Source of the DNA: a virus
Lineage: Duplodnaviria; Heunggongvirae; Uroviricota; Caudoviricetes
Length of the DNA: 64,000 nucleotides
Direction: 5' to 3' (one strand)
Virus record (IMG/VR): IMGVR_UViG_3300030035_000024
Shown: in pieces, positions 5,570-53,430 of the stretch
Layout: each line of letters begins with the position of its first letter
Numbering within the stretch: position 1 is the first letter of the stretch
The notes under the pieces: model-generated
Database searches by the model: none
What the model was told of the DNA's origin: nothing
What the model saw: the letters and a program-made list of their open reading frames with translations, nothing else
Made by a program: the position numbers and the translations under genes

Positions 5570-6295
5570 TTAATATAAACTTCTAATGTAAGTATTTGTA
5601 AATTCGTTATACTCTCCAACCATATCAATATTATTTACGGAAACGTATCTAGTTTCATATGTTCCTGTATATTCGTCTGTATTTGAGTAAGTAAATTGAG
5701 TAATAAAACTGTAGTCTTTTCCATCATAAGAAAAATCTCCACGTACTTCCGCTAATCCATCACATTCTTTAATTTCGAGTGAATTTTCTCCCCCTGTCCC
5801 GATTCCAAGATTAACCATAGGATTTATATTATACTGCATGAGTTCTTCTGCGGTTCTGCCAATAAATTTCTTAGTATCAGAATCTAAATCGTCTCCGTTT
5901 TTTATCAACCACGGAAACAGATTAGTCCCCATATTTGAAGTTTCTGTCCCATTGTCTACATCATATGTTACATCCAGTAACAATCGTCCAGAATCCGATG
6001 CAAAAACAAGTGAATAAATATCATTATAGTCAAACCAATCTTGATAAGCCATATTTCTAAGCATTTCATGTGATTGTTTAACATAATCCAGAGATTCTTC
6101 CCGTGGAAGAGATACCCTTACGAAAAGGCAAGAAACATTTTCTCCACAATATTCTTCCGCATAAAATGATATCGTGTCAGAACTATAATCAGCCAAATAC
6201 TCATTAACTTGGTCTATGGAAGCCATGACAGGTGTCGCAGTCACCAAACTCGCCATCACGGTTGCAGCAGCAATAACTCTTTTTACTTTCTTCAT
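5570..6295 (-). CDS. Secreted protein of unknown function (241 aa)
   Basis: Signal peptide MKKVKRVIAAATVMASLVTATPVMAS. Convergent with the Big_2 gene. Confidence 0.5.
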   Translation of the reverse strand: MKKVKRVIAAATVMASLVTATPVMASIDQVNEYLADYSSDTISFYAEEYCGENVSCLFVRVSLPREESLDYVKQSHEMLRNMAYQDWFDYNDIYSLVFASDSGRLLLDVTYDVDNGTETSNMGTNLFPWLIKNGDDLDSDTKKFIGRTAEELMQYNINPMVNLGIGTGGENSLEIKECDGLAEVRGDFSYDGKDYSFITQFTYSNTDEYTGTYETRYVSVNNIDMVGEYNEFTNTYIRSLY

Positions 6296-7025: not shown

Positions 7026-7469
7026 TTAATTACCCTCATATGTCTCATAATCAATCGTTCCAAGATTACCGTACACATTTGGATAATAAATTCCAACCCA
7101 GAAGTTATCCTCCATTGCTTTGTAGTAAGTTACTTTTACATTCCATCTCTGTACCTCGTCAATAATTTCTTTGTTTAGAAGTCCGAATTGATCTCGGCAA
7201 GCTTCACTTTCCAGTTTGTAAGTCAATGCTTTGTATTTCTCGGCATTTGCCTGTCTGGTGGCGGTAACATTGGTTTTGGTGAGTAGTAAAATCAATCCAG
7301 CTACCAGGAACCATACTACACTGATGAAAGAAATTACCACGCCAAAAGACAATATAAATCCACTCACACTTGAACGCTCATATTCGCAGCTTAAAGATTC
7401 GCCTATTCTATTTGTAATCAGAATAACAACGCCGACCGCAAAAATGATTACTGATAGCCAAAATATCAT
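7026..7469 (-). CDS. Membrane protein, 2 TM helices plus cytoplasmic domain (147 aa)
   Basis: Hydrophobic stretches MIFWLSVIIFAVGVVILI and FGVVISFISVVWFLVAGLILLL. Confidence 0.45.
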   Translation of the reverse strand: MIFWLSVIIFAVGVVILITNRIGESLSCEYERSSVSGFILSFGVVISFISVVWFLVAGLILLLTKTNVTATRQANAEKYKALTYKLESEACRDQFGLLNKEIIDEVQRWNVKVTYYKAMEDNFWVGIYYPNVYGNLGTIDYETYEGN

Positions 7470-8530
7470 AGCATGTCCTCCCTGTCCTCAACTTTCATTA
7501 ACAAATTTTTCCGTATGTAGCCAGACATGAAATGCGAATAATGATGATCCGTGTACTCACTAAATGAAGTGCCAAAGTATTCATCAATCACTTTCATGTA
7601 TGTTTCAATTTCAACATTCTGGAAGTAATCTGGATTTGGCCCGAATCCAAACTTGTCCAGGATATTATCCAAAGCGTCTTGATTGATTTTTATGTGCGGT
7701 TTTCTGGTTCGTTCTTCATACCTCTTGAAGAAATACTTCGATACTACCAGGAAGCGGTTAGTTGTATATGGGCTTGTCGTATATCCCAATTCTTCAAGAC
7801 GCACTGAAACCTGGTTCTTGAATGCAGACCAGTTAAAAGATTTACGGTCTATTGGAGTATACTGGATGTTCTCCTCGGTCAACATATTTTTGATATGTTG
7901 AGAATTGAACCACTCGTTAGAGTGGTATGCATTTTTCTCTTCTTCTTTTAACTCCGTAGGAGATGTAGTATCTGGTTTATCATTAATGTCTGAAATATAA
8001 TCTCTGTTTGTAGTTTTTGGTATTGTTTGACGGTTTGAATCGTATTGATCGTTCATTGGTACTTCATTCATTGCGCACTCATGCGCATTGGAAAAATCAT
8101 CTGGCAAATTAATTTTGTAATCGCTTAAAGGATAACCTTTTTCTTTAAGTGCTTTTGCTATATTTACAAGGCTAACACGATATTGTAAAGTTCTGTCCCA
8201 TTTGTATTTTGGGTTATTTCTTTTTGAAATAAAGCCCATATTAACCAGTTCATTGATATACCGTCTTACTTGGCTTACAGACAAGCCAAGCATGATTTCA
8301 TTGGATAGTTCTTCTGCTGTTTTGTATATCCAGCCATAGAATAATTCCTTTTCTTCTTCACCATTTTTTCGTGCGATTTCATTTTCTTTTTCAATGAATT
8401 TATCTGCATCGGAAACTCTTTCAGACCAATAAATAAATTGTTTTAATATGATTGCTTTACGAAAATCTCCTGTAATAGCAAGCAAATCTTCACGCAAAAC
8501 TACTTTTTTAATTTTCTCCATCTTATTCAC
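7466..8530 (-). CDS. RepA_N-like winged-helix DNA-binding protein (putative replication initiator or regulator), 354 aa
   Basis: N-terminus ...ELFYGWIYKTAEELSNEIMLGLSVSQVRRYINELVNMGFISKRNN resembles the Firmicutes RepA_N winged-helix pattern. Family call is from memory of the motif, not a search. Confidence 0.45.
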   Translation of the reverse strand: MNKMEKIKKVVLREDLLAITGDFRKAIILKQFIYWSERVSDADKFIEKENEIARKNGEEEKELFYGWIYKTAEELSNEIMLGLSVSQVRRYINELVNMGFISKRNNPKYKWDRTLQYRVSLVNIAKALKEKGYPLSDYKINLPDDFSNAHECAMNEVPMNDQYDSNRQTIPKTTNRDYISDINDKPDTTSPTELKEEEKNAYHSNEWFNSQHIKNMLTEENIQYTPIDRKSFNWSAFKNQVSVRLEELGYTTSPYTTNRFLVVSKYFFKRYEERTRKPHIKINQDALDNILDKFGFGPNPDYFQNVEIETYMKVIDEYFGTSFSEYTDHHYSHFMSGYIRKNLLMKVEDREDML

Positions 8531-9341: not shown

Positions 9342-9442
9342 TCTCCGTATTGTGCCAGAATCCTTGATTTATAAAAACAGTGGACAGGCGCATCAAGGTT
9401 TACGCTTTTCGGCGGCCAACCTAGCCCACTGAATTTACCATA

Positions 9443-9913: not shown

Positions 9914-10176
9914 AGATTGATACCTGCCTTTCGTATAAAAGAGTGCCTTGAACTGTATGTAAATCAACAGGCAGGCGGCAAGGCATTTCCGCTTTTCGAT
10001 GATCGGTCTAGCCTGTTGGTTTTACCGAAATTTATCGACTTAATAAAAAAAGAGCCGCCAAGTAAGACAAAAAATTCCTCAAAATCGAGAAATATTAATT
10101 TCTTCTTAGCGGCTCAAAAATCAAGACCGTGTGTACTTCTTCATTAAAGAAATCATACCACACAATCAGTCAAAAA

Positions 10177-35757: not shown

Positions 35758-35829
35758 TAGAAACAACAGGAATCGAACCTGTGTCACATGATATTCAATA
35801 TCATTGCTCTACCACTGAGCTATGTTTCA
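35758..35829 (-). tRNA. tRNA-like gene (72 nt): canonical D and T arms, anticodon loop AUUGAAU (anticodon UGA, Ser-type without a long arm), 1:72 U-U mismatch
   Basis: Minus-strand TGAAACATAGCTCAGTGGTAGAGCAATGATATTGAATATCATGTGACACAGGTTCGATTCCTGTTGTTTCTA. Followed by a structured region (TCTGGCAA/TTGCCAGA hairpin). Confidence 0.45.
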
Positions 35830-35882
35830 TATCACCGCCTGTCACGGTCAGTTTAGAAACTGAGTTGATTTTCACCCTTTAT

Positions 35883-37334
35883 TTATTCCACTTTGATACA
35901 ATCATATCTTTCTGAATTAATTACATTTTCCATAGCTTCAATCGGATTGTATCCAAGATTCTGTAAGATTTGTTTGAAAACTGTTACAGATTGACCACTT
36001 GCAAGTTGAACGCCTTTTCTTTTTGAATCCGCATGAAATACGTCATGTCTTCTTTTAACATTCCAGAAAATAATGTTTGGAATAACGTATCCGGCTTTAT
36101 GGAACTTGTTTGCCATTTTATCATAAAACGACCAATTTCGATTTCCACAATAATCAATTTCCATATCAGAAATTACGACAATAGCTTTCGGCATTTCTTC
36201 CTGTGAAATATTATTTTTTTCTGCTATATCAAGCACCTTTTCAAATGCAGCTTTAAGGTCTGTACTATTGCCCCAATCAGCCCTTTTAGCATTATTGATT
36301 TTCTGTGAAAGGGTTTCACCCTTTAAAACAACTGTTTCTGGATTACTGGAAAATGTCATAAACAAATTGTGGTATGCCCCAACATTTCTTTCGGCAAAGT
36401 ATATTGCCAATCCGATTGATGTTGCCATTGGTCTTCCATACATTGAACCGGATACATCAGCCATAATCAAAGCGTTTGTTCCCTGTTCTATGTAATTTGG
36501 GAGTGCTTTCCATTGTGCTTCAAGAACTTTATTGTTCTCTCGTCCGTAAAGGATTTTTTCCACGATGTCATAAGGATACAAAGTTGAAGCGTTGATTTTA
36601 ACTTCTCCTTTATCAGCCTTATTAATAAAATCATTAAATCCATCTGGATCATGTTTTGCAAAAGCCTTGCGATAAATCATCATTGCACGGCTCGGAACTT
36701 CTGGATATTTAATCTCATTCCATTTACCGGCAGACATAAGGCTTTCAACAACACCGATCTGTTTTCTCATGCTACGAACAATTCTCTTAAAGTTGTAGAC
36801 TGGATAACCCAACTTCTGTGCAGTCAAGATTCCTAACTTCCTAGTTTCTCTGCTACTTGCATCAGCAGTCTTAATCCATTTAGCAAGTAAAGAAATTGCT
36901 TTTCCATCATTGAGATTTTTCAAATCTTCCTCAAATTGTTTCTTCATAGATTTCCACATGTCATCTTCAAGTGGTGTTTCAATCAGTTCATACAGATCAT
37001 CGTATCTCCCGAATACTCCAATCAAATCAAGATTCGGTCTGAGTGCTTCTGGATGATGTTCAGCCATGTAACGGATAATGGTTCGAAAAGTTTTTCTCTC
37101 TCCAAGCCCACAACGAATATCTCTTGCATAAAAAGCAATCTTTGTGGCAAAGAGTTTATCCTGTGCAAATGCTTCTGAGAATAAAGTGGTGATTCTATTT
37201 TCATCAGCTTCTCTCAATGCACCAATAGTTCCGAACAGGTCAAGTCTTGCATCGCTTGTAGTATTCAGCGCAACTGCTCCGTTTTCGGTTCTTGTAAATT
37301 TTTTTTCTTGTTTCATTGCATTTGCAAAATCCAT
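35883..37334 (-). CDS. vWA-domain protein with N-terminal helical (TROVE-like?/DUF2828-like) region, 483 aa
   Basis: MIDAS motif DVSGSM (D-x-S-x-S) with downstream T and D in a vWA-like segment (aa 290-420). About 290 aa of helical N-terminus. Flanked by tRNA-like RNAs. Confidence 0.5.
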   Translation of the reverse strand: MDFANAMKQEKKFTRTENGAVALNTTSDARLDLFGTIGALREADENRITTLFSEAFAQDKLFATKIAFYARDIRCGLGERKTFRTIIRYMAEHHPEALRPNLDLIGVFGRYDDLYELIETPLEDDMWKSMKKQFEEDLKNLNDGKAISLLAKWIKTADASSRETRKLGILTAQKLGYPVYNFKRIVRSMRKQIGVVESLMSAGKWNEIKYPEVPSRAMMIYRKAFAKHDPDGFNDFINKADKGEVKINASTLYPYDIVEKILYGRENNKVLEAQWKALPNYIEQGTNALIMADVSGSMYGRPMATSIGLAIYFAERNVGAYHNLFMTFSSNPETVVLKGETLSQKINNAKRADWGNSTDLKAAFEKVLDIAEKNNISQEEMPKAIVVISDMEIDYCGNRNWSFYDKMANKFHKAGYVIPNIIFWNVKRRHDVFHADSKRKGVQLASGQSVTVFKQILQNLGYNPIEAMENVINSERYDCIKVE

Positions 37335-37487
37335 GTTTCTTCTCCTTTCAGGACACGAAAAATATAAAATATACGAATTAGATTTTATTTAAGTGAGTTG
37401 CTGCAAGCGTCCCATAAATTTCATGATGCTTTTTGGTTTCATAATTAACAGTTATGTCCAAAATGATTGCTGTAAGCATCACATAAT

Positions 37488-37577
37488 TGCCCCGACAGGA
37501 TTTGAACCTATAAAATTATTTGCAGTGAAGAACACAAACATGTTCTAATCGGTTTTCCGTAACCGATAACCGGGGCA
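37488..37577 (-). ncRNA. Aberrant tRNA-like RNA A (90 nt): acceptor, D and T arms retained, anticodon arm replaced by a 6-bp stem with a UGUUUG hexaloop
   Basis: Minus-strand TGCCCCGGTTATCGG...CCGATTAGAACATGTTTGTGTTCT...ATAGGTTCAAATCCTGTCGGGGCA. 7-8-bp acceptor pairing, T-loop TTCAAAT, and no 7-nt anticodon loop. Confidence 0.5.
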
Positions 37578-37578
37578 G

Positions 37579-37692
37579 TGACGAGGGATGGATTCGAACC
37601 ACCAACCTATGCCTTGTAATGGAGTAAATTGCTGTTATAGTCACAAACATGACTAATATTCTCATTGCTCTGTCCAATTGAGCTACCTCGTC
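37579..37692 (-). ncRNA. Aberrant tRNA-like RNA B (114 nt), 1 nt upstream of A; same CAUGUUUGUG hairpin plus a 27-nt insertion
   Basis: GACGAGGTAGCTCAATTGGACAGAGCA...AGTCATGTTTGTGACT...GGTGGTTCGAATCCATCCCTCGTCA. Perfect acceptor, D and T arms; AAUGAG/CUCCAUU long-range pairing encloses the insertion. Confidence 0.5.
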
Positions 37693-37751
37693 TAAAAACC
37701 AACAATAGATATGCTAAAGTAAGATATCCTATCTACACCTGGTAGATGGAA

Positions 37752-37823
37752 TTGCAGGAGACGGATTCGAACCGCCGTTCTCAAGGATATGAGCCTTGCG
37801 AGATTCCACTTCTCTATCCTGCC
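37752..37823 (-). tRNA. tRNA-Met(CAT), initiator-like 1:72 mismatch (G-A)
   Basis: GGCAGGATAGAGAAGTGGAATCTCGCAAGGCTCATATCCTTGAGAACGGCGGTTCGAATCCGTCTCCTGCAA; anticodon loop CUCAUAU. Confidence 0.6.
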
Positions 37824-38113
37824 GGAACCCGGAAAAACCGGGCTAGCAATAGGTTTATCGTGTTATGCTTTCCACTATCTACAAGTTTTAGTGCTGTAGA
37901 TTCACTGGATATTTTTATACGTCTTAGAACGGCATCTCTTGAAAACTCCTTTTATTAACGTGCGCTGCGTTAATATTTTTAACTCAGAGATATACCAGCC
38001 GGGAAATCAGATCCATTTAAGCTACGCCGTATCGCACCTAAATTTACCTAATCCACACGCTCAACTGGAAGTTTTTTCCACCCATATTACGGATGAATGG
38101 CATTTAGAAGAAA

Positions 38114-38186
38114 TGGAAACTCTGGGATTCGAACCCAGGACTTACGGCTTATGAGGCCGTTGCTCTTACCACTGAACTAAGCTTCC
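38114..38186 (-). tRNA. tRNA with CAT anticodon (elongator Met or Ile2)
   Basis: GGAAGCTTAGTTCAGTGGTAAGAGCAACGGCCTCATAAGCCGTAAGTCCTGGGTTCGAATCCCAGAGTTTCCA; canonical cloverleaf. Confidence 0.75.
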
Positions 38187-38335
38187 TGAGATACCAGAAA
38201 TAAGCCCGCCATAGATTTATTTCTGGCACTGTTGCAGTTCTTGACCGCCAGCCGCAACAAAGGTTTTCTGAAACGCTTTTGGATTCCAGAAAAGATTGTT
38301 ATAAAATGAACTTGCGGCGTTAGCAAAACCGCAAA

Positions 38336-38408
38336 CTGGGCTAACTGGATTCGAACCAGTAAATGCAGCAATCAAAGTGCTGTGCCTTAACCGTTTGGCG
38401 ATAGCCCA
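38336..38408 (-). tRNA. tRNA-Gln(TTG)
   Basis: TGGGCTATCGCCAAACGGTTAAGGCACAGCACTTTGATTGCTGCATTTACTGGTTCGAATCCAGTTAGCCCAG; closely matches the Bacillus-type tRNA-Gln scaffold. Confidence 0.8.
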
Positions 38409-43805: not shown

Positions 43806-43840
43806 ATTATCACCTCACTTTAGCACGTTAATTTGTAAAT

Positions 43841-43907
43841 AAAAAAGAGAATGTCACCAGGTAAAGCTTATTCCCGGAAAATTTCCGGGTGTTCGGGTAC
43901 ATTCTCT
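43841..43907 (-). terminator. Rho-independent terminator/attenuator (minus strand) in the 5' leader of the 43215-43805 gene
   Basis: AGAGAATGT...[nested CCCGGAAAATTTCCGGG palindrome]...ACATTCTCT followed by TTTTTTATTT on the minus strand. Confidence 0.45.
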
Positions 43908-44364
43908 AAAACTTAAAATAAAATATTCTGTTTTCTTTGTTGCTGATACCTTAACACAGTCTTTAATATCTTGTCAAATTTAATTTTGCATAAAATAAAA
44001 CCCTTTATTTTGTCAGTAATTAATAAATAATATTTGGCATATTATATTATAATCTTCATTTATATTTATATTATATATGTTATTATACGGTACTGTATAG
44101 AATATCTTTTAATAAACTCTTGCCTTAGGAATCTATGGAGGGGTAAAAGATATATTATATATAATACATTTAGACATAATAAAAACCAGACCATTACCGA
44201 GCTTTAATGCCTGGATGATCTGGCTTGTTAACTGCTACTTTATTCTGTTCAGGTGCAAACGATTTCACAATAACCACCCCTCCATGAGTTCCCGCAACCA
44301 TCGTTGATAATAACGTTACTGTAAGTTTTCCAGAAAGTCAAGCCAAAAATAAAAAACATTTTTC

Positions 44365-44395
44365 TTGACAAAAATTAAAAACCTGTGCTATTAAT
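44365..44395 (+). promoter_or_regulatory. Sigma70-like promoter (TTGACA-18-TATTAAT)
   Basis: Near-consensus -35 and -10 elements read from the sequence. Confidence 0.5.
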
Positions 44396-44401
44396 ATCTT
44401 A

Positions 44402-44530
44402 ACAGCTTCGGCGGTGGGGCTGTTAACCCCTCAAACGTCGTTACGCCGCCACAAATAAGCATTTTAAAAGCCCCGGGATGATTTCCAAGGGCTTTTTCTT
44501 TTGGTTGGGGCGATTGTTCGCCCCTTTTGG
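44402..44530 (+). ncRNA. Candidate small RNA (about 125 nt) between promoter and tandem terminators
   Basis: No RBS or ATG. Nested hairpins GGCGG[GGGGctgttaaCCCC]...CCGCC. Two consecutive intrinsic terminators. Confidence 0.4.
44468..44528 (+). terminator. Tandem rho-independent terminators (the second is bidirectional)
   Basis: AAGCCC-15nt-GGGCTTTTTC, then GGGGCGattgttCGCCCCTTTT. On the minus strand the second also terminates the 44531-44779 gene. Confidence 0.6.
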
Positions 44531-45111: not shown

Positions 45112-45140
45112 TTGACATTCTCTAATTTTAGTGATATTAT
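45112..45140 (+). promoter_or_regulatory. Sigma70 promoter TTGACA-17-TATTAT driving the J-domain operon, with a ~200-nt leader
   Basis: Read directly from the sequence. The leader contains the hairpin GCCCGGcagtcttccaaaccaaaCCGGGC. Confidence 0.5.
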
Positions 45141-45350: not shown

Positions 45351-46430
45351 ATGAGTAAATATTTTAAGAGCGTAACAAGTTATCAAGATTTGAAAGATCA
45401 GTATAGAAAACTTTTGAAAGAAAATCACCCGGACAACGGCGGCGACCTGGAACAGATGCAGGAAATCAACGTAGAATACGATGCAATGTTTAAAATCTGG
45501 AAAGATCGCGCAGCTGTTGCAAATAATCTTTCAGAAGAAGAAAAAACAGAAACCGCAAGAAGCACAAGACGCCATTTTTACAGTGCTTACGGCTGGGAGG
45601 GTTCAAGATACGATGTTAATTTGTCATTAAAAGAGATTGCTAAAATTGTAAGAGCCTATGTAAAAGAAGAATACCCAACTTGCAAATTTAGCATTCGCAC
45701 TCATTACGCAAGTATGTGCCAGTCATTAAGCGTTGATTTGCTGGAATTCCCGGAACAGATGTATAAAACCGCTGCGGAACTTAAAGAAAACTATTATACA
45801 GAAAACACGTATATAGATAAAGACGGAAAAACTCAGAGCTACAAAACCATGTCGGAAGAAGTAAACGAGATGTGGAGAAAATTAAATAGAAATAATATTT
45901 TTACACTTGACAGCTGGACAGATGACGATCTATTGAAATGCTATGAAAAAGTTGTTTTTGAGGAAAACAAATCATTTTTCGGGGTACAAACTGAATATTT
46001 TAAAAGCGTTGTTGATGATGTAAACGCCTTTATTGCTTCTTATAATTACGATGACAGCGACAGCATGACGGATTATTTTGATGTTAATTTCTACGGCGGA
46101 GAAGTTGATTTTAGAAACTGTAAATATGTTCCAAAAGTCGCCAGAATTAAAAAGCAAAATACAGCCCCGGCAGCAAAAGAAAATAAAGAAGAATCAAGCG
46201 CCGCAGAAATTGAAACAAGCGGAAAAGCTTATACAGTGGAAGAAAGCCAGCACACAAAAACAGGCGAAAAGATTTATCTTGTAAAATGGCTCGATACTCT
46301 CAGCAGAGAAAGCTATAAAGAATTAAATAGCCAGATTAAAAAGTTAGGCGGCTATTATTCGAGATTTACACATAGTTTTATTTTTAAAGATGATCCTACC
46401 GAAATTTTGAAAGAGGTAAAAATCGCATGA
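45351..46430 (+). CDS. J-domain (DnaJ-like) protein with large C-terminal domain (359 aa)
   Basis: YQDLKDQYRKLLKENHPDNGGDLEQMQEINVEYD carries the HPD motif of J domains. RBS GGGTGAGGGTG. Confidence 0.6.
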   Translation: MSKYFKSVTSYQDLKDQYRKLLKENHPDNGGDLEQMQEINVEYDAMFKIWKDRAAVANNLSEEEKTETARSTRRHFYSAYGWEGSRYDVNLSLKEIAKIVRAYVKEEYPTCKFSIRTHYASMCQSLSVDLLEFPEQMYKTAAELKENYYTENTYIDKDGKTQSYKTMSEEVNEMWRKLNRNNIFTLDSWTDDDLLKCYEKVVFEENKSFFGVQTEYFKSVVDDVNAFIASYNYDDSDSMTDYFDVNFYGGEVDFRNCKYVPKVARIKKQNTAPAAKENKEESSAAEIETSGKAYTVEESQHTKTGEKIYLVKWLDTLSRESYKELNSQIKKLGGYYSRFTHSFIFKDDPTEILKEVKIA

Positions 46431-46954
46431 TAGAATGTAAAACAAATTGTTGCAGGTGCCAAAAATATGGCACCTGTGAACGATCACAAGAAAGATTATT
46501 TGAAAAGCTTTTTACTCGTTACGGATATGTACAGAAAGAAATGAGTAATAAAACAATACATATTTACGAACAACATCCGGAAAACTTACACAGTGAAAAG
46601 GAAATTTTAGAAAGATTCAGTCATGCAAAAGGAACTATTGAAGAATTAGAAGAAATGTTATTAGAATTAAAATCTTATCAAATAGAATTGTCAAAACGTT
46701 ATAATTATATTTTAACTTCTCCCATAAAAAAGAAGATAGAATTAAAAAGAGAAAAGCTCTATAGAAAAAACGTTATTTACTATATAAATTTTTATGATGT
46801 TAATTTAAATGACGGTCATGAGGAATTGACAAATTTTATAAAATATTCTGGAATTGAGCGAAAACAAGCGTTATTGCATTTTGAACAATTAAAAAAAAAA
46901 AATCCGAATGCTTTTTTTAAAAAAGATATTGAGCGTAATAAATGGGAAAAATAA
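46427..46954 (+). CDS. Hypothetical (175 aa), N-terminal Cys cluster
   Basis: MIECKTNCCRCQKYGTCE; charged helical remainder. 4-nt overlap with the upstream gene. Confidence 0.35.
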   Translation: MIECKTNCCRCQKYGTCERSQERLFEKLFTRYGYVQKEMSNKTIHIYEQHPENLHSEKEILERFSHAKGTIEELEEMLLELKSYQIELSKRYNYILTSPIKKKIELKREKLYRKNVIYYINFYDVNLNDGHEELTNFIKYSGIERKQALLHFEQLKKKNPNAFFKKDIERNKWEK

Positions 46955-47338: not shown

Positions 47339-47767
47339 ATGATAATGTTAAAAATAGAAAAATGGGAAAGCGTTGTAAATGAAACTATTAAGCATTTTTT
47401 TGATAATTATAAAGTATTTGATGATAATAACAAAGCTTTAGAAAATAAAAGCCTGTATCAATACATTAATGATATTTGCGAAAAAGGCCCGGAAACAGAA
47501 ATCTTGCACTTTTTATTTACTGGTGAAAGTGAATATATCCAATTTGCTGGAAAGTACAATATTTCTTTGTACTATGAATTTACGCAAGAACTTGAAAACA
47601 AATTGATTGATGAATTTTATTCCCTTAATAAAAAGCAATTCTGTGACGATCTCGAAAATTTTACAGATTATTTTTTAAGCGAACACACAATTTTATTGAA
47701 AACATATATTTATGATATTCTTGATGGTTTTACGGCTAAAAAGTTAAAAAACCTTATTTTCAAATAG
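47339..47767 (+). CDS. Hypothetical (142 aa)
   Basis: ORF-track ORF with RBS GGGGGG. Followed by a GC-rich terminator-like hairpin CCGCTT...AAGCGGTTTTTTT (47780-47840). Confidence 0.35.
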   Translation: MIMLKIEKWESVVNETIKHFFDNYKVFDDNNKALENKSLYQYINDICEKGPETEILHFLFTGESEYIQFAGKYNISLYYEFTQELENKLIDEFYSLNKKQFCDDLENFTDYFLSEHTILLKTYIYDILDGFTAKKLKNLIFK

Positions 47768-47996
47768 TTTTCACCGCTTCCCGGTATCCAGTCCGGCGGC
47801 ACGTTCACGGCGTGCAAGCGGTTTTTTTGGCATTCTGCCAGATGCACCTTGCAAAATTAATATAATAAGTCAATCAATTAACGCGCTATTTTAGCCGTAA
47901 ATGGCTTTTAATGCTGTTAGCGGGGATTTATGCCACTGTTGATTTTTAATCCGTTTATGAGCCTTTAAAACGCTTTTTAGAGTCTTACATGGTTTA

Positions 47997-48025
47997 TTGA
48001 CTGTCTGCGGCTATGGGTGTATAAT
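47997..48025 (+). promoter_or_regulatory. Consensus sigma70 promoter TTGACT-17-TATAAT firing into the iteron array
   Basis: Exact consensus -10 and near-consensus -35. No credible ORF within about 800 nt downstream. Confidence 0.55.
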
Positions 48026-48064
48026 AGCCTTGTATAGCCTTGTATAGCTATGTACGGCTATGCT
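48008..48064. repeat. Iteron-like direct repeats (TAGCCTTGTA x2, TAGCTATGTA, CGGCTATGCT; further GGGCTATA/TATAGCC copies to about 48260)
   Basis: Tandem 10-bp repeats read in the sequence. A second repeat family ATGTGCGTA occurs twice at 48084-48115. Confidence 0.5.
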
Positions 48065-48354
48065 TTATTTGCGTACCGTGTAAATGTGCGTATTATGTCC
48101 GCTTATGTGCGTAGCTTGTCCAGTCTTCCCGGTGATCTGTCGCAGTTGACCGGGCTATATAACAATTAGGGCTATACGAATATATTGCGATATGCTTGTA
48201 TAACGCTGTATTTGCCATTTTAAGGCGTTTTATAATCGTAGCCAATAAAAATATAGGCTAAATACGTTACAAGCCATTTAAGGCTTATTTTGCAAGAGTA
48301 TTATTGTATTTTAACGTTGTGTTGTATGTTACTTGTTGCTATGGTCTATTATCC

Positions 48355-48535
48355 GTGGGTTATTGGTTCTGATCTGCCAGAGCTACGGCTGGCGGTTGAC
48401 TTCGTTGTCGTTCAATCGTTCCCGGCGCTGTCCAGGCTTCATAAGCTCGGCATGGTATCGGCTCCCGGTGCTGTCCCCTGGTTGATTTGTGGCAACGGAA
48501 AAGTCGCAGCTGTTCAAGGATTCAATAGTTGCAAC
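48355..48535. other. Second GC-rich structured island (about 55% GC)
   Basis: Hairpins GCCAGagctacggCTGGC and repeated GCTGTCC. Only a TTG-start ORF without RBS overlaps it. Confidence 0.3.
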
Positions 48536-48597
48536 TAACTTGTGGATGATCCCTAAATTTCAACATAATTTTAGAAGCCTAAAATCAAGGAAATCCA

Positions 48598-48646
48598 TAA
48601 AAAAAGTGGCAACCAGAAAAATTCTCTCATTTTCTAGCTGCCACTT
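48598..48646 (-). terminator. Rho-independent terminator (minus strand) downstream of the DUF4417-like/recombinase operon
   Basis: AAGTGGCA-27nt-TGCCACTT followed by TTTTTTTATGG on the minus strand. Confidence 0.5.
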
Positions 48647-48816
48647 AAATTTTAATTTTGCACAAATATTTCTATAGCGTAAAGTTCTGAATGATTCAAA
48701 ATTCACAATTTATTTAATCCTTCTTTCTTACGTGTTCCATATCTTCTGTGAGATGATTTCTCTAAACGTTCCGTCCTCTTTGGGACTTGGAAAGTTTCTT
48801 CTTTCTCTGGTAATTA

Positions 48817-49497
48817 TCAGTCGTTGTTCCCATTCGCGCCCTCCTTGTTAATCTTCTGGTTTCTGGTTTCAAAGTTTATAATTTCTGTGTCCGTTTCAAG
48901 TTCTTCCGGGATTCTTCCAACAATGATAACTCGCAGTGGATTCAGTCTACGTTCCATTTCCTTGAAACCAACGCAAAACTCCAACCGTGCTGCCTTGCTC
49001 TTTACTCTTCCATTGGTGCAACAGGCAACTGTGCTTCCCTCCGGCAGTCCATCAAAGCACCAGTCCCAACAGTATTCTGGTAATATGCTTACGTTCGGAA
49101 TTACTGGAATATCATTCAAGATCATGTAGTGAGACAATGCATGATTGCGGTATTTATTCCACAGGCACATTACCAGTGGCATTCCATTCTTTCCAACCGA
49201 TATGCTGAAATCTGGCATAATGACTGCATGAAAACATTTTAAATGCTTAATATACTTGTCTGGCTGATTCCATAATCTTTGAAACTGTACATCATCCACG
49301 TAGAAGTTTACATCCAGTTCCCGGTGGTTCTTAATCTTCCGGCTAAAGCTCTCCGCAAAATCTACAGTATTTTTCCCTGGATGGATAAAAGTCTTTGGAA
49401 TTTTAGGGATTCCGTACTGTCCAACAAGCTCTGCATCCGTGATTAAAAACTCTTTCATTACGTCATAAGCTGTATGTATCATTGATTCCACTCCCAT
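48817..49497 (-). CDS. DUF4417-like protein (226 aa)
   Basis: VDDVQFQRLWNQPDKY...CWDWCFDGLPEGSTVA resembles the DUF4417 pattern as remembered. Function unknown. Confidence 0.4.
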   Translation of the reverse strand: MGVESMIHTAYDVMKEFLITDAELVGQYGIPKIPKTFIHPGKNTVDFAESFSRKIKNHRELDVNFYVDDVQFQRLWNQPDKYIKHLKCFHAVIMPDFSISVGKNGMPLVMCLWNKYRNHALSHYMILNDIPVIPNVSILPEYCWDWCFDGLPEGSTVACCTNGRVKSKAARLEFCVGFKEMERRLNPLRVIIVGRIPEELETDTEIINFETRNQKINKEGANGNND

Positions 49498-49506
49498 TTT
49501 TTTCTC

Positions 49507-51219
49507 TTATAGTGCTAAAAGGTACTTATATTTGAAAAATACCATATCTTGTGTCTTAATGCAAGTTTTCCTACTAAATATCTTGTGTTGTTCTGGATGT
49601 AGAGTTAAAATCATATCGTCAGAACGGCACAAGGGAAACCCCCATTTTTCAAGGCCTCCAGACCTTAATTGAAATGTCAGTGTTGCACATGTAACCGCCA
49701 ACGGTTCAACGGTAATTTTCTCAAAAAGTTCATTAACAATCTGTCTGTTAATATCTTGTGGAGTAACGCCTTTGAACTTTTCTAGCTGTTCTTTAATAGC
49801 ACTTAATTGTATTTCTACTGGCTCTGGACTTTTGGTATTTTGGATTTCTAGAATATGGCTCTCAATCTGCTTTATCTGCTTCACGTATTCTTTATTTCTT
49901 GAAATAAATTCATCATCAGATATTTTTCCATCCAGATTATATTCCAGTATTTTTTCACGTTTTTGTTTTAACAGATCAATCTGTTTTTCAAGTCGTGAGA
50001 TTTCGTTTTTATTGTCTGGAATGTTTTTGATCGAGGACTGCAAAATTTCAAAATATTCCTCCAAAATGCTATCAATGTTTTCAGAAGATTTATTTATCAA
50101 TTCTGCAATTATTTCTTTCAGTTCTGATTCTGCCAGTCCAAATGAATCACATGAAGCTGCTCCGTTTTTTATCTTATAACTGCATACCCATCGAACATCT
50201 TCTTTTCCTCGAATATAATGCTGCTTCATCCAGTATGGAGCTCCGTCATTTGCGCAGAAAAGTTTTCCAGTGAAAATATTTTCGTTTTTAAAAGAGGTTC
50301 TTCTTGATTTTATAGCTTCTCCACGCTCTCTTAAATATGCGTTTGCCTTTTCCCAGGTAGTTTCATCAATGATCTGCGGTACTCTGGAACCATCATCCTT
50401 AAACATTATCCATTCTGACTGTGGAAGAAATTCTTGTTTCTTGGTGAACATATCGACAACCTTTACTTTTCCTCCACAATAGTATCCTTTGTATTTTGGA
50501 TTCCGAATAATATTTTTTATGACATCCCGGTTGATTTTCCCACCTTTGAAACTTCTGTATCCCATATCCCAGAGTTTTTTTTCTATTCTTGGCGTAGATA
50601 TTCCGGAAGCGTAATCTTGAAAAATCATTCGAACCATGTCCGCTTCTTCTGGAACCAGTTCGAGTTTTCCTTGATTGTTTGAGTATCCATACATTCTGTG
50701 CCCGAGAACAACACCATTTTTGATTGACTGTGCGTGTCCAAATTTTACTCTTGAAGAAAGCTTGCGGATTTCGTCCTGCGCTACCCCAGCCATAATAGTA
50801 AGTCTGAACTCACTATCATCATCAATAGTGTTAATTCCATCATTTTGGAACCACACGCATACGCCGTAAGATAACAATTCCCTGGTATATTGGATGCTGT
50901 CAAGAGTATTTCGTGCAAATCTTGAAATTTCTTTCGTAATAATCATGTCAATTTTTCCGAGCTTTGCATCTCTGAGCATTCTTTGAAATTCTTCTCTTTT
51001 ATCCGCATGTATTCCAGAAATACCATCATCAATGTAAGAACCAGCAAACTTCCATCTGTTGTTAGAATGTATCAGCTCTTCAAAATGTTCCTCCTGGTGC
51101 TTAATGGATGCTTGCTGTTCAACTTTTTCAGTAGAAACCCTGGCATAATAAGCAACATTTAGTTCAATGTCGTAAATAGAGCAATTTCTTAATTTTTCTC
51201 TGACATAATAAATATTCAT
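49507..51219 (-). CDS. Large serine recombinase (phage integrase, about 570 aa)
   Basis: YARVSTEKVEQ...DDGISG...SRFARN catalytic domain; recombinase domain; zinc ribbon CANDG...CSYK...C; coiled coil. Start at MNIYYV with RBS AAGGGAG. Confidence 0.85.
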   Translation of the reverse strand: MNIYYVREKLRNCSIYDIELNVAYYARVSTEKVEQQASIKHQEEHFEELIHSNNRWKFAGSYIDDGISGIHADKREEFQRMLRDAKLGKIDMIITKEISRFARNTLDSIQYTRELLSYGVCVWFQNDGINTIDDDSEFRLTIMAGVAQDEIRKLSSRVKFGHAQSIKNGVVLGHRMYGYSNNQGKLELVPEEADMVRMIFQDYASGISTPRIEKKLWDMGYRSFKGGKINRDVIKNIIRNPKYKGYYCGGKVKVVDMFTKKQEFLPQSEWIMFKDDGSRVPQIIDETTWEKANAYLRERGEAIKSRRTSFKNENIFTGKLFCANDGAPYWMKQHYIRGKEDVRWVCSYKIKNGAASCDSFGLAESELKEIIAELINKSSENIDSILEEYFEILQSSIKNIPDNKNEISRLEKQIDLLKQKREKILEYNLDGKISDDEFISRNKEYVKQIKQIESHILEIQNTKSPEPVEIQLSAIKEQLEKFKGVTPQDINRQIVNELFEKITVEPLAVTCATLTFQLRSGGLEKWGFPLCRSDDMILTLHPEQHKIFSRKTCIKTQDMVFFKYKYLLAL

Positions 51220-51300
51220 AGTGCATTTCTCCCTTAATAAACAGGGAGTGGAATCATATAAAGTATAACACCTCATATAACTCCACTCAATACATTTTCG

Positions 51301-51486
51301 TTACTTTCTAATGCTGATTTCAGCTTTAATTTTATCTCTTGTTTTCTCATCTATCAGACCAAGTGAGAACATTCTTTCGTTTATGGCATACAATATAGCT
51401 TTTTCCATTAATTGTCCCTCCATATAATTATCTCGTTTTAAGCGCTGTTTTTCTTTATCTTTTGTATGCCCTATAATTTCTACCAT
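51301..51486 (-). CDS. Hypothetical (61 aa)
   Basis: ORF-track ORF. Confidence 0.25.
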   Translation of the reverse strand: MVEIIGHTKDKEKQRLKRDNYMEGQLMEKAILYAINERMFSLGLIDEKTRDKIKAEISIRK

Positions 51487-51537
51487 TATTCTCTTTTGAA
51501 CGATTCTGCACTATTTTAAGTACACAATTATCACGTT

Positions 51538-52121: not shown

Positions 52122-52519
52122 GTACCATCCACATTTTCAGATACCGCCCATTCTCTAAGCTGTGCCGGGCTTGATACCGCTTTCTGGATGATTTTTGGGA
52201 GCTTATCAAACTCCGTTTCTGCATATAATGCAGAGCTTTGAATGGCTCTGCGCACCATTTCCCATGCTTCTGTTTCGTTCAGTTCTTCTTTTTGAAGCAT
52301 AAGGCTCTGCGCGCATTGCCGTAATGCAGCTATTGTAGGCTCTTTACATTCTGTCTGCATATATTTCTTTAACCCAAAACTTAAAAGCTTGTAATCTAGG
52401 TCTTTCAGTAATCCGTACCAAGTATCAAAAGCATATTGATCTGGCAGAAATGATGGAGAAGTGTACACAGCTTTCATTGCCTTTACGAGTACCGCCCATT
52501 CTTCTCTTTTCATACCCAA
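51959..52519 (-). CDS. Hypothetical replication-module protein (186 aa)
   Basis: Follows the replisome organizer with a 10-nt overlap. Confidence 0.35.
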   Translation of the reverse strand: MGMKREEWAVLVKAMKAVYTSPSFLPDQYAFDTWYGLLKDLDYKLLSFGLKKYMQTECKEPTIAALRQCAQSLMLQKEELNETEAWEMVRRAIQSSALYAETEFDKLPKIIQKAVSSPAQLREWAVSENVDGTWWSVVQSNFQRTYRAEVQREQERRKLSPDLLKIIDSARLGGVEKCQIENHGEN

Positions 52520-53430
52520 TTATCCACCTCGCTTACTCTGTTTTGAATTTTCTCCATGTAGCTGCACGGTCTATTCGTAGACTTGTCTGCGTATTGCCCT
52601 TCAAATACTTTTGCGAAATTTCCAGGCTTTAAGAACCAGTCAAACGTAACCATCCAGCCATTTTTATTTTGCCCTTGTAGGAATGTGCTGTGTCGAATAT
52701 TTTCAATCGCTTCCAGAATATCTTCAACACAGTTCTGACGGATTCTAGCTTTTACTGCCTGTTCTCGTTTTGGTGTCATTCTTTTTACAGGAGTAATACC
52801 AAATTCTTCCAGAGTATTCCATTCATCAATGATTCGTTGGACGTCAGTCTGACGAATAGTATCTTTAGATACTATTAAATCATTCTCTTCTTCTATTTCT
52901 TTTTCTTTATTATCTAATTCTTTATTATCTAGTTCTTTATTATATACTTCTGCCGAGCTAACGTTAGTTTTACTGTTAACTTTACCGTAAAGTTTACTGT
53001 TAGTTTTACACTCTATTTTGTCTTTCTGCTTTTTTCGATATTCTTGCATATAGTTTCGCATATATTGGCTTTTTTGCTCAATTTTATCAAGATTTTGATA
53101 TTTTCCCCAGTTCGGAATTGTGTAAACACCGGAAACAATTTCAATCATTCCGTAGTTTTCAAATGTTTTTAACGCTAATCGAACTGTATTAATGTCTCTT
53201 CTAAATACTGTTGCCAACATTTCATCTGTATATGCAATTTTATCGTTTAAAATAAAAACACCACTGTTGTTATTTTTCCCGGCTAAGCATAATAATTTGA
53301 ACCATATTACGATAATGCTGTCTGCACTTGGCAAATTTTCAATCAGCATTATTTTTTCATCGTCGAAAATATCTGAACATATTTTTATCCATTTTACATC
53401 GCTTGCCAATTCTAAAATTCCTTTCTCCAA
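52510..53430 (-). CDS. Phage replisome organizer (DnaD-like), 306 aa
   Basis: N-terminus MEKGILELASDVKWIKICSDIFDDEKIMLIENLP fits the replisome-organizer N-terminal pattern; central low-complexity linker. Confidence 0.55.
   Translation of the reverse strand: MEKGILELASDVKWIKICSDIFDDEKIMLIENLPSADSIIVIWFKLLCLAGKNNNSGVFILNDKIAYTDEMLATVFRRDINTVRLALKTFENYGMIEIVSGVYTIPNWGKYQNLDKIEQKSQYMRNYMQEYRKKQKDKIECKTNSKLYGKVNSKTNVSSAEVYNKELDNKELDNKEKEIEEENDLIVSKDTIRQTDVQRIIDEWNTLEEFGITPVKRMTPKREQAVKARIRQNCVEDILEAIENIRHSTFLQGQNKNGWMVTFDWFLKPGNFAKVFEGQYADKSTNRPCSYMEKIQNRVSEVDNWV

Follow-up and report, generated by a model that had tools for sequence, protein, structure and literature searches.

A conserved, family-specific locus with a near-consensus promoter in a temperate gut phage, a candidate non-coding transcription unit

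In the plasmid ColE1, RNA II is a long untranslated RNA made from a strong promoter, and a facing promoter gives rise to the antisense transcript RNA I. Transcriptional interference and retroregulation are known from coliphage 186, with the promoters pR and pL, and from phage lambda, where sib is located downstream of int. An untranslated RNA also has a role at the replication origin of the lactococcal phage c2 (Ceduovirus). This origin is a non-coding region flanked by promoters, and the untranslated transcript PE1-T is needed for its function (PMC7150918). ORF and RBS are both lacking there, the sequence differs strongly from one phage to another, and no phage proteins are needed for function (PMC7150918).

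Here we analyzed a phage DNA stretch of 64,000 nucleotides (the window) together with its relatives. A sequence-only reading had marked a region of about 1 kb without ORFs and had proposed a replication origin or a regulatory RNA locus. What it had observed was partly confirmed and its interpretation was partly supported: a regulatory RNA fits the data, while an iteron origin is unsupported. The ORF-free region is real, with no ORF of at least 100 aa between 47768 and 48816, but is closer to 0.9 kb. As had been stated, it holds no credible ORF; the only one present is an 82-aa ORF with a TTG start. To the left lies a plus-strand block with a J-domain/LPD29 protein (45351-46430) and ORFs at 46427-46954 and 47339-47767. 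The right neighbor is the 3' end of a long minus-strand operon, which comprises genes for DUF4317, a replisome organizer (52510-53430), a loader-like gene, a large serine recombinase (49507-51276) and DUF4417 (48817-49497). The unit itself is thus placed between convergent operons.

The window belongs to a family of uncultured human-gut phages of 80-85 kb, for which over 200 contigs were found in IMG/VR and over 130 in metagenomes, with a coverage of several hundred-fold in some contigs. DNA and protein searches of cultured phage records revealed no close relative and no annotation to borrow. Scanning GTDB genomes with DUF4417 gave distant, non-syntenic matches only, and a second DUF4417 scan with L046 as seed returned the same family. 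In a 16-mer scan of viral contigs the element was detected in this family only, besides presumed chance matches. The ORF-free region was present and collinear in essentially all relatives, with 81-94% identity, and the unit was free of ORFs in all relatives examined. We also observed a contig of 1535 nt (L398) in which 522 nt of unrelated sequence connect window position ~45353 with ~49022. It lacks the non-coding unit together with the plus-strand block and some of DUF4417, and represents a deletion variant or else a chimera of the assembly.

Third codon positions of DUF4417, with a pairwise identity of 0.855, served as the neutral benchmark. Conservation of the unit was patchy. The two terminators at its ends reached 0.94-0.95 and 48200-48300 was also well conserved, while the transcript body, with 0.81-0.87, was approximately neutral or lower. 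Many indels in the two least conserved segments (48076-48199 and a GC-rich island) are not multiples of three. Thus a reading as a pseudogene or as a gene in an alternative code was rejected.

Conservation of the unit begins at the intrinsic terminator of the J-domain/LPD29 block (47772-47828, plus strand), a hairpin with a T-run that had a structure conservation index (SCI) of 0.82 on the plus strand and an identity of 0.949; identity between relatives resumes exactly at 47768. The 142-aa ORF directly upstream (47339-47767) was replaced or absent in ~60% of the relatives. It behaves as a variable accessory cassette adjoining the conserved non-coding unit, and the unit was kept where this ORF is swapped, as in most relatives. 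Next to the terminator lies a conserved upstream block (47831-47990, no strand assigned), with an identity of 0.890 against the neutral benchmark. It contains a small hairpin, AGCCGTAAATGGCT followed by TTTT (47893-47906).

At the other end, the minus-strand terminator that had been assigned to the integrase/DUF4417 operon was found as a hairpin at 48604-48646. On the minus strand it has a folding energy of -24.9 kcal/mol, a U7 tail and an SCI of 0.8-0.9. On the plus strand the folding energy is -15.4 kcal/mol, with two mismatches, a displaced U-tract and an SCI of 0.26-0.32. The hairpin is thus optimized for the minus strand; it is also the likely 3' boundary of a plus-strand RNA. Further to the right, 48700-48816 is strongly conserved because a small basic ORF is located there, and the true non-coding span shrinks accordingly. 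This ORF (48762-48833, minus strand; identity 0.958) has the RBS AAGGAGG and an ATG at 48833. Its product is very basic and 23 aa long in the window, and the ORF overlaps the DUF4417 stop. A 44-aa gene was called at its place in the near-identical contig L121 (4256-4390), and the window copy may have been shortened by a stop codon or frameshift.

Inside these boundaries, the predicted promoter P(+), TTGACT-17-TATAAT (47997-48025, plus strand), was present as described and matches the sigma70/sigmaA consensus in 11 of 12 positions. It had been called the best sigma70 match in the window, which was not the case: a 12/12 site is located at 44767->44739 (minus strand), and six sites score 11/12 in all. 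Conservation was evaluated in 343 related loci with 48 unique variants. The -35 hexamer TTGACT was found in every variant, the -10 hexamer TATAAT in 47 of them, and the spacing was 17 throughout. In contrast, the spacer sequence was variable, including the GGCTAT copy inside it. Pairwise identity of P(+) among the relatives was 0.925. With its near-consensus hexamers, the 17-nt spacing and the conservation relative to the spacer, P(+) has the sequence characteristics of a sigma70/sigmaA promoter. The pattern indicates purifying selection on the hexamers and on the 17-nt distance between them, with drift in the spacer sequence; position and direction of P(+) are under selection as well.

Further promoter-like sequences were noticed elsewhere. 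The perfect 12/12 sigma70 promoter at 44767->44739 sits at the 3' end of a Cro/C1-type HTH gene, and an 11/12 promoter at 45112-45140 (plus strand) with a leader of ~200 nt precedes the J-domain block. Together, these two look like a phage switch region. A second ORF-poor region (43806-44530) has a TTGACA promoter-like site on the plus strand. Downstream of this site come ~100 nt of GC-rich hairpin sequence that end in a clear terminator, AAAGCCCCGGG...CCAAGGGCTTTTTCTTTT. We regard 44357-44500 (plus strand) as a candidate small RNA.

The unit was also compared with a sister clade (L393-L397), in which DUF4417 has 83-85% amino-acid identity and the flanks have ~76% nucleotide identity. Blastn homology to this clade ends at 48654. 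An ORF-poor region of 0.8-1 kb is retained. It has a same-strand promoter, TTGACG-17-TATCAT, whose distance to the DUF4417 stop is 771-924 nt (820 nt in the window). Partial profile homology to the unit was detected with nhmmer (E 1e-16 to 1e-20). The region is likewise G+T-rich and A-poor, and its terminator is bidirectional, with U-tracts on both strands. Hence a selected promoter, freedom from ORFs in the relatives, terminators as boundaries, and a position and direction kept in the sister clade speak for the regulatory RNA locus that had been proposed.

The locus might instead be an intergenic spacer mostly devoid of function, perhaps left over from a decayed gene, with promoter-like sequence in it by chance. 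Most of the body is neutral and has frequent indels, six further sites in the window score at least 11/12, and neither a conserved fold nor an Rfam match was detected (see below). A mere spacer is difficult to reconcile with hexamers and a spacing that are essentially invariant across 48 variants beside a drifting spacer, or with a promoter whose place and strand are maintained in a clade where the flanks are only 76% identical. Moreover, the region survives swaps of neighboring genes, and conservation in several blocks clearly exceeds the synonymous rate. We therefore consider a non-functional spacer very unlikely.

Directly after the promoter, four tandem 10-bp repeats had been described as iterons. 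A 10-bp tandem repeat is indeed present, with 2.5 perfect copies at 48024-48048 and 3.2 copies at 81% at 48031-48062 according to Tandem Repeats Finder (TRF). However, the number includes a strain-specific duplication: the second TAGCCTTGTA unit, a 10-bp duplication, was confined to 3 of 334 loci, each of them belonging to the strain of the window. Of the further GGCTATA/TATAGCC copies, the enrichment of GGCTAT was reproduced (six copies in the 167 bp of 48009-48175 versus 27 in the rest of the 64 kb), but several copies are degenerate or deleted in relatives. Most of them have TAGTC instead of TAGCC at 48241, and the copy at 48170 was lost by a 25-nt deletion in 8 of 37 aligned sequences. A second repeat, ATGTGCGTA, was found at 48084 and 48105 as reported, but its second copy is no repeat in most relatives.

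When modeled as RNA, the putative iterons fold into a 5' stem-loop followed by a U-tract. The predicted 5'-terminal stem-loop (48032-48063) with UUUAUUU occupies 48032-48070 on the plus strand and includes the strain-specific 10-bp duplication. It was calculated to fold with -14.6 kcal/mol in the window and with -9.6 kcal/mol in a typical relative. Across 78 sequences the stem was 98.9% paired on the plus strand and 83% on the minus strand. Variation was mainly found in the loop, and most changes in the stem were wobble-compatible on the plus strand only. We infer a transcription start at ~48032, where the stem-loop begins. The segment 48032-48070 was flagged as terminator-like, and a hairpin with U-tract 30-40 nt past the start could cause early termination of most transcripts. 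Repeats after a promoter can mimic iterons in a single sequence, and caution is advised: only the relatives revealed a strain-specific duplication that forms a 5' hairpin.

Iterons are conserved direct repeats in at least three copies, typically of 17-22 bp, to which the initiator binds, and their cognate initiator gene is adjacent or contains the origin. The units here are 10 bp long, with 2.5 perfect copies, and are not conserved, and no such initiator gene is linked to 48.0-48.3 kb. The 'RepA_N-like' gene at 7466-8530 that had been pointed out gave only sub-threshold wHTH and RP-C matches in Pfam. An iteron origin is thus not supported, the repeat number being strain-specific, the motif unconserved and a better candidate located elsewhere. 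The two top-scoring tandem arrays of the window lie inside the replisome-organizer gene (minus strand), in the linker after the N-terminal Phage_rep_org_N domain. One is at 52903-52951 (period 15, 3.3 copies, TRF score 77), the other at 52963-53009 (period 12, 3.9 copies, TRF score 52). Relatives carry distinct repeat alleles of these linker arrays (52888-53009). In lambda O-type and SPP1 G38P-type modules the origin lies inside the initiator gene, at the position that the arrays have here. The phage's real origin is probably inside the replisome-organizer gene, at ~52903-53009.

A transcription-dependent origin of the c2 type, in which a non-coding transcript primes or activates replication, was weighed separately. 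Similar to c2, the unit combines a conserved promoter with a variable body and has neither ORF nor RBS. Its non-template strand is G-rich (GC skew +0.08 to +0.2), and one 8/9 DnaA-box-like sequence, TGTGGATGA, is located at 48541-48549 (~0.2 expected by chance). In contrast to what a c2-type origin would lead one to expect, the phage has its own replisome organizer and loader, its best tandem arrays are those in the organizer linker, and these vary allele-wise like initiator/iteron pairs. In addition, the region lies between convergent operons and not between divergent early and late ones, the repeats at 48.0 kb are strain-specific, and no AT-rich unwinding element stands out. An origin of this type, which a strong promoter could also serve, is distinctly unlikely, although it is one of the main rivals of our preferred reading, together with the trans-acting or sponge RNA discussed below.

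Downstream of the stem-loop follows the variable part of the transcript body (48076-48199, plus strand), with indels of 9, 23, 25 and 30 nt and an approximately neutral identity of 0.867. It contains two further GGCTAT copies that are deleted or degenerate in relatives. The RNAalifold consensus contains a helix, GGCUAUAUA / UGUAUAA..GCU, around a dispensable loop (48153-48207, plus strand). Its arms (48153-48161/48197-48207) were 96.3% paired on the plus strand and 79.5% on the minus strand, with an SCI of ~0.5 and a z of 0.24 for the window sequence alone. It is a weak candidate for an RNA element. The block 48200-48300 is the best conserved of the transcript body. Within it sits a putative second promoter, P(-), which faces P(+): TTGGCT-17-TAAAAT at 48245->48217 on the minus strand (9/12). 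Most relatives have TTGACT-17-TAAAAT there, which scores 10/12, as in L088. It is possible that 48217-48245 works as a promoter on the minus strand. P(-) was not found in the sister clade and is therefore not a core feature.

Further downstream, a GC-rich structured island had been noted. The GC content of 48300-48599 is indeed 0.46-0.50, but no conserved structure was detected (SCI 0.00-0.12). The segment 48355-48520 (plus strand) is GC-rich, G+T-rich and A-poor and carries CGGCT and TCCCGG repeats. Its identity of 0.815 is below the synonymous benchmark, and it is absent or replaced in five relatives (L046, L350, L359, L369 and L376). It is followed by a block with an identity of 0.915 (48527-48545, plus strand), which contains the palindrome AGTTGCAACT and a candidate hairpin, UUGCAA-CUAAC-UUGUGG. 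This hairpin (48529-48545) was 95.4% paired on the plus strand and 58% on the minus strand. In L094 and L096 five of its positions are changed and all six pairs are kept.

Coding potential was evaluated in the relatives. No ORF in the unit was conserved in more than 48 of 78 sequences, and no small ORF led by a Shine-Dalgarno sequence was conserved across relatives. Thus a hidden gene and a type I toxin were ruled out. A type I toxin-antitoxin locus would combine a conserved small RBS-led ORF with an antisense RNA, and this combination was not found. An exact-protein look-up of the 82-aa ORF for transcript-like contigs returned no record. Rfam gave nothing relevant for the whole window at gathering thresholds and only chance-level matches for the region at E<=10. 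ROOL, GOLLD and other known Rfam RNA families were rejected, as no covariance model matched. Elsewhere on the minus strand, two matches to int-alpA RNA (9362-9431 and 9946-10018; 53.6 and 45.4 bits) were above the gathering score. A tRNA cluster (35758-38408, minus strand) comprises Ser-TGA, Met twice and Gln-TTG. ARAGORN did not call a fifth Rfam tRNA match of 114 nt (37579-37692), in which an intron may be present.

Taken alone, the window sequence of the unit folds well on both strands (z about -2.8). With RNAalifold the consensus reached -68.9 kcal/mol, compared with -180.7 kcal/mol for the single sequence. The covariation term for the whole unit was -2.06, and any double change was found in 9 of 124 pairs. 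In sliding windows the SCI was high only at the terminators and ~0 over the GC-rich island. A generic structured ncRNA, with a conserved fold supported by covariation, was accordingly rejected, and the lack of a conserved fold in the body makes a classical structured trans-acting RNA unlikely. The three short helices (5' hairpin, 48153-48161/48197-48207 and 48529-48545) were 95-99% paired on the plus and 58-83% on the minus strand, values that reflect one-sided wobble changes only and carry an ascertainment bias, the helices being derived from the same sequences. They modestly suggest that the plus strand is the functional RNA strand. A covariation helix search on the unit gave hundreds of wobble helices on the G+T-rich strand and was for this reason uninformative. 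Complementarity of the RNA to the rest of the 64-kb window was at chance level only, and no target was found there.

Motif content was considered with regard to a trans-acting regulatory or protein-sponge/decoy RNA. Such an RNA of ~630 nt would be G+U-rich, its motifs would titrate a host or phage factor, and its divergence would result from an arms race. CGGCT occurs four times here versus 0.45 expected, and six times versus 0.8 in L395 of the sister clade, in a strand-specific manner. Together with TCCCGG, TACGGCT and TGTCCAG it is found on the plus strand in both clades. CCGG reaches 7 per kb, compared with 1.9 per kb in the whole window. Furthermore, some segments evolve faster than the synonymous rate, and the unit adjoins a variable accessory gene block near the prophage end. 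However, motif sharing between homologous sequences is not independent evidence, and the strand bias of CGGCT is a consequence of the overall scarcity of A. The predicted transcription start leaves one CGGCT copy upstream, outside the RNA, and the GC-rich part is dispensable in some relatives. A PADLOC scan of the neighboring proteins revealed no defence system, and no partner protein was identified. We regard a sponge as unlikely. The narrower proposal of a new class of phage long ncRNA, acting in trans through CGGCU/UCCCGG repeats as a sponge or decoy for an RNA- or DNA-binding factor of host or phage, for example in defence or anti-defence, is more doubtful still.

The GGCTAT/ATAGCC half-sites, together with inverted 11-mers on either side of the unit, could also act at the DNA level. 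The region would then be a protein-binding cluster, consisting of operators, a partition centromere or an invertible switch, in which they are bound by a repressor, a ParR-like protein or a recombinase. Local enrichment of GGCTAT and a palindrome, GGCTAT-N9-ATAGCC, that overlaps the -10 hexamer are consistent with this. The 11-mer TGCAAAATTAA occurs in three exact copies in the window (43980-43990, minus; 47850-47860, plus; 48652-48662, minus; ~0.15 expected) and may be a regulator-binding site. The copies at 47850 and 48652 are inverted relative to each other and flank the non-coding unit. Fusions of DUF4417 with ParB-CTPase folds are frequent in phages (bioRxiv 10.1101/2025.10.10.680097), which was counted in favor of a binding cluster. 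On the other hand, the half-sites mutate without compensating change in the partner half, the copy at 48241 being altered in most relatives. Finding an AT-rich inverted repeat of 11 bp within 1.1 kb is close to what chance would give, and in the sister clade the left 11-mer has a different orientation. The neighborhood contains no par genes. Despite the 11-bp inverted repeat, none of ~340 loci was inverted and all were collinear; thus an invertible promoter switch was rejected. A binding cluster as the function of the region is highly improbable.

The position of the unit within the prophage was derived from two relatives, L336 (117 kb) and L343, in which bacterial genes abut phage DNA at window position ~49618, near locus position 5889. 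The host genes beyond the junction encode galactokinase (GalK), a DinB-family polymerase, a GntR regulator and an ABC ATPase. The phage of ~82 kb is temperate. Within the serine integrase gene, the junction (...GATCATC|TTTTTAACTCTACATCC) falls in the last ~37 codons, which places attP at ~49618, in the 3' end of this gene. Integration would consequently alter the C-terminus of the integrase, as is the case for intP of Mx8. The ORF-free region is therefore not the attP of the serine integrase; the unit lies 1-1.6 kb inside the DUF4417-proximal prophage end. It also follows from this junction that integration separates DUF4417 and the small ORF from their operon and leaves them at the prophage edge. 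Both are then co-directional with the host genes, and P(+) points outward, convergent with them. A transcript antisense toward the integrase/DUF4417 operon had been predicted; the geometry proved right, and the junction adds weight to it. In a group of relatives (L357, L371-L377 and L379-L392) a tyrosine integrase of the Phage_integrase family (436 aa in L357) replaces the serine integrase, compared with window 49480-51524. DUF4417 and the non-coding unit are unchanged in these.

Taken together, we favor, as slightly more likely than not, that the region is a conserved, family-specific non-coding transcription unit that acts by antisense or transcriptional interference or as a regulatory RNA. 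In this model, an untranslated plus-strand RNA would start at ~48032 from the near-consensus sigmaA/sigma70 promoter P(+). It would open with the 5'-terminal stem-loop made of the so-called iterons, run for ~0.6 kb through a fast-evolving, G+U-rich, A-poor body, and end at, or read through, the hairpin at 48604-48646. The 5' stem-loop would stabilize or attenuate the RNA. Since the promoter is conserved and most of the transcript is neutral, the unit most likely functions through the act of convergent transcription or through cis-antisense pairing. It could interfere with, or insulate against, transcription of the int-DUF4417 operon and read-in that crosses the attachment junction from the host, and in the main clade the facing promoter at 48245->48217 may modulate this interference. 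An abundant gut phage would thus carry a family-wide invariant promoter and a fast-evolving untranslated RNA at the prophage edge. This makes the unit a candidate for RNA- or transcription-based control of lysogeny, of integrase-operon expression or of the prophage-host boundary.

Compared with described systems, the unit resembles ROOL and GOLLD in its size of ~0.6 kb and its occurrence in Firmicute prophages, but it has no Rfam match even at E<=10 and no conserved secondary structure. With the c2 origin it shares a length of several hundred bp free of ORF and RBS, a strong conserved promoter and a divergent interior. However, c2 is strictly lytic, lacks its own initiator and has its origin between divergent early and late blocks, whereas the unit described here belongs to a temperate phage with convergent operons and a replisome organizer with internal repeat arrays. 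Similar to ColE1, a facing promoter is located ~100-200 nt downstream, from which a transcript would arise that can pair with the 5' part of the long RNA. In contrast to ColE1, this facing promoter scores only 9-10/12 and is absent in the sister clade, an antisense structure of three stem-loops is missing (SCI ~0 on the minus strand), no downstream origin is evident and the host is a Firmicute. Unlike in coliphage 186 and lambda sib, neither promoter drives coding genes here, and the attachment site lies inside the int gene and not between int and the element; a conserved hairpin of the RNase III type was not found. What the unit has in common with these two systems is a non-coding element downstream of int, next to the attachment junction and convergent to the operon, with a geometry that changes on integration.
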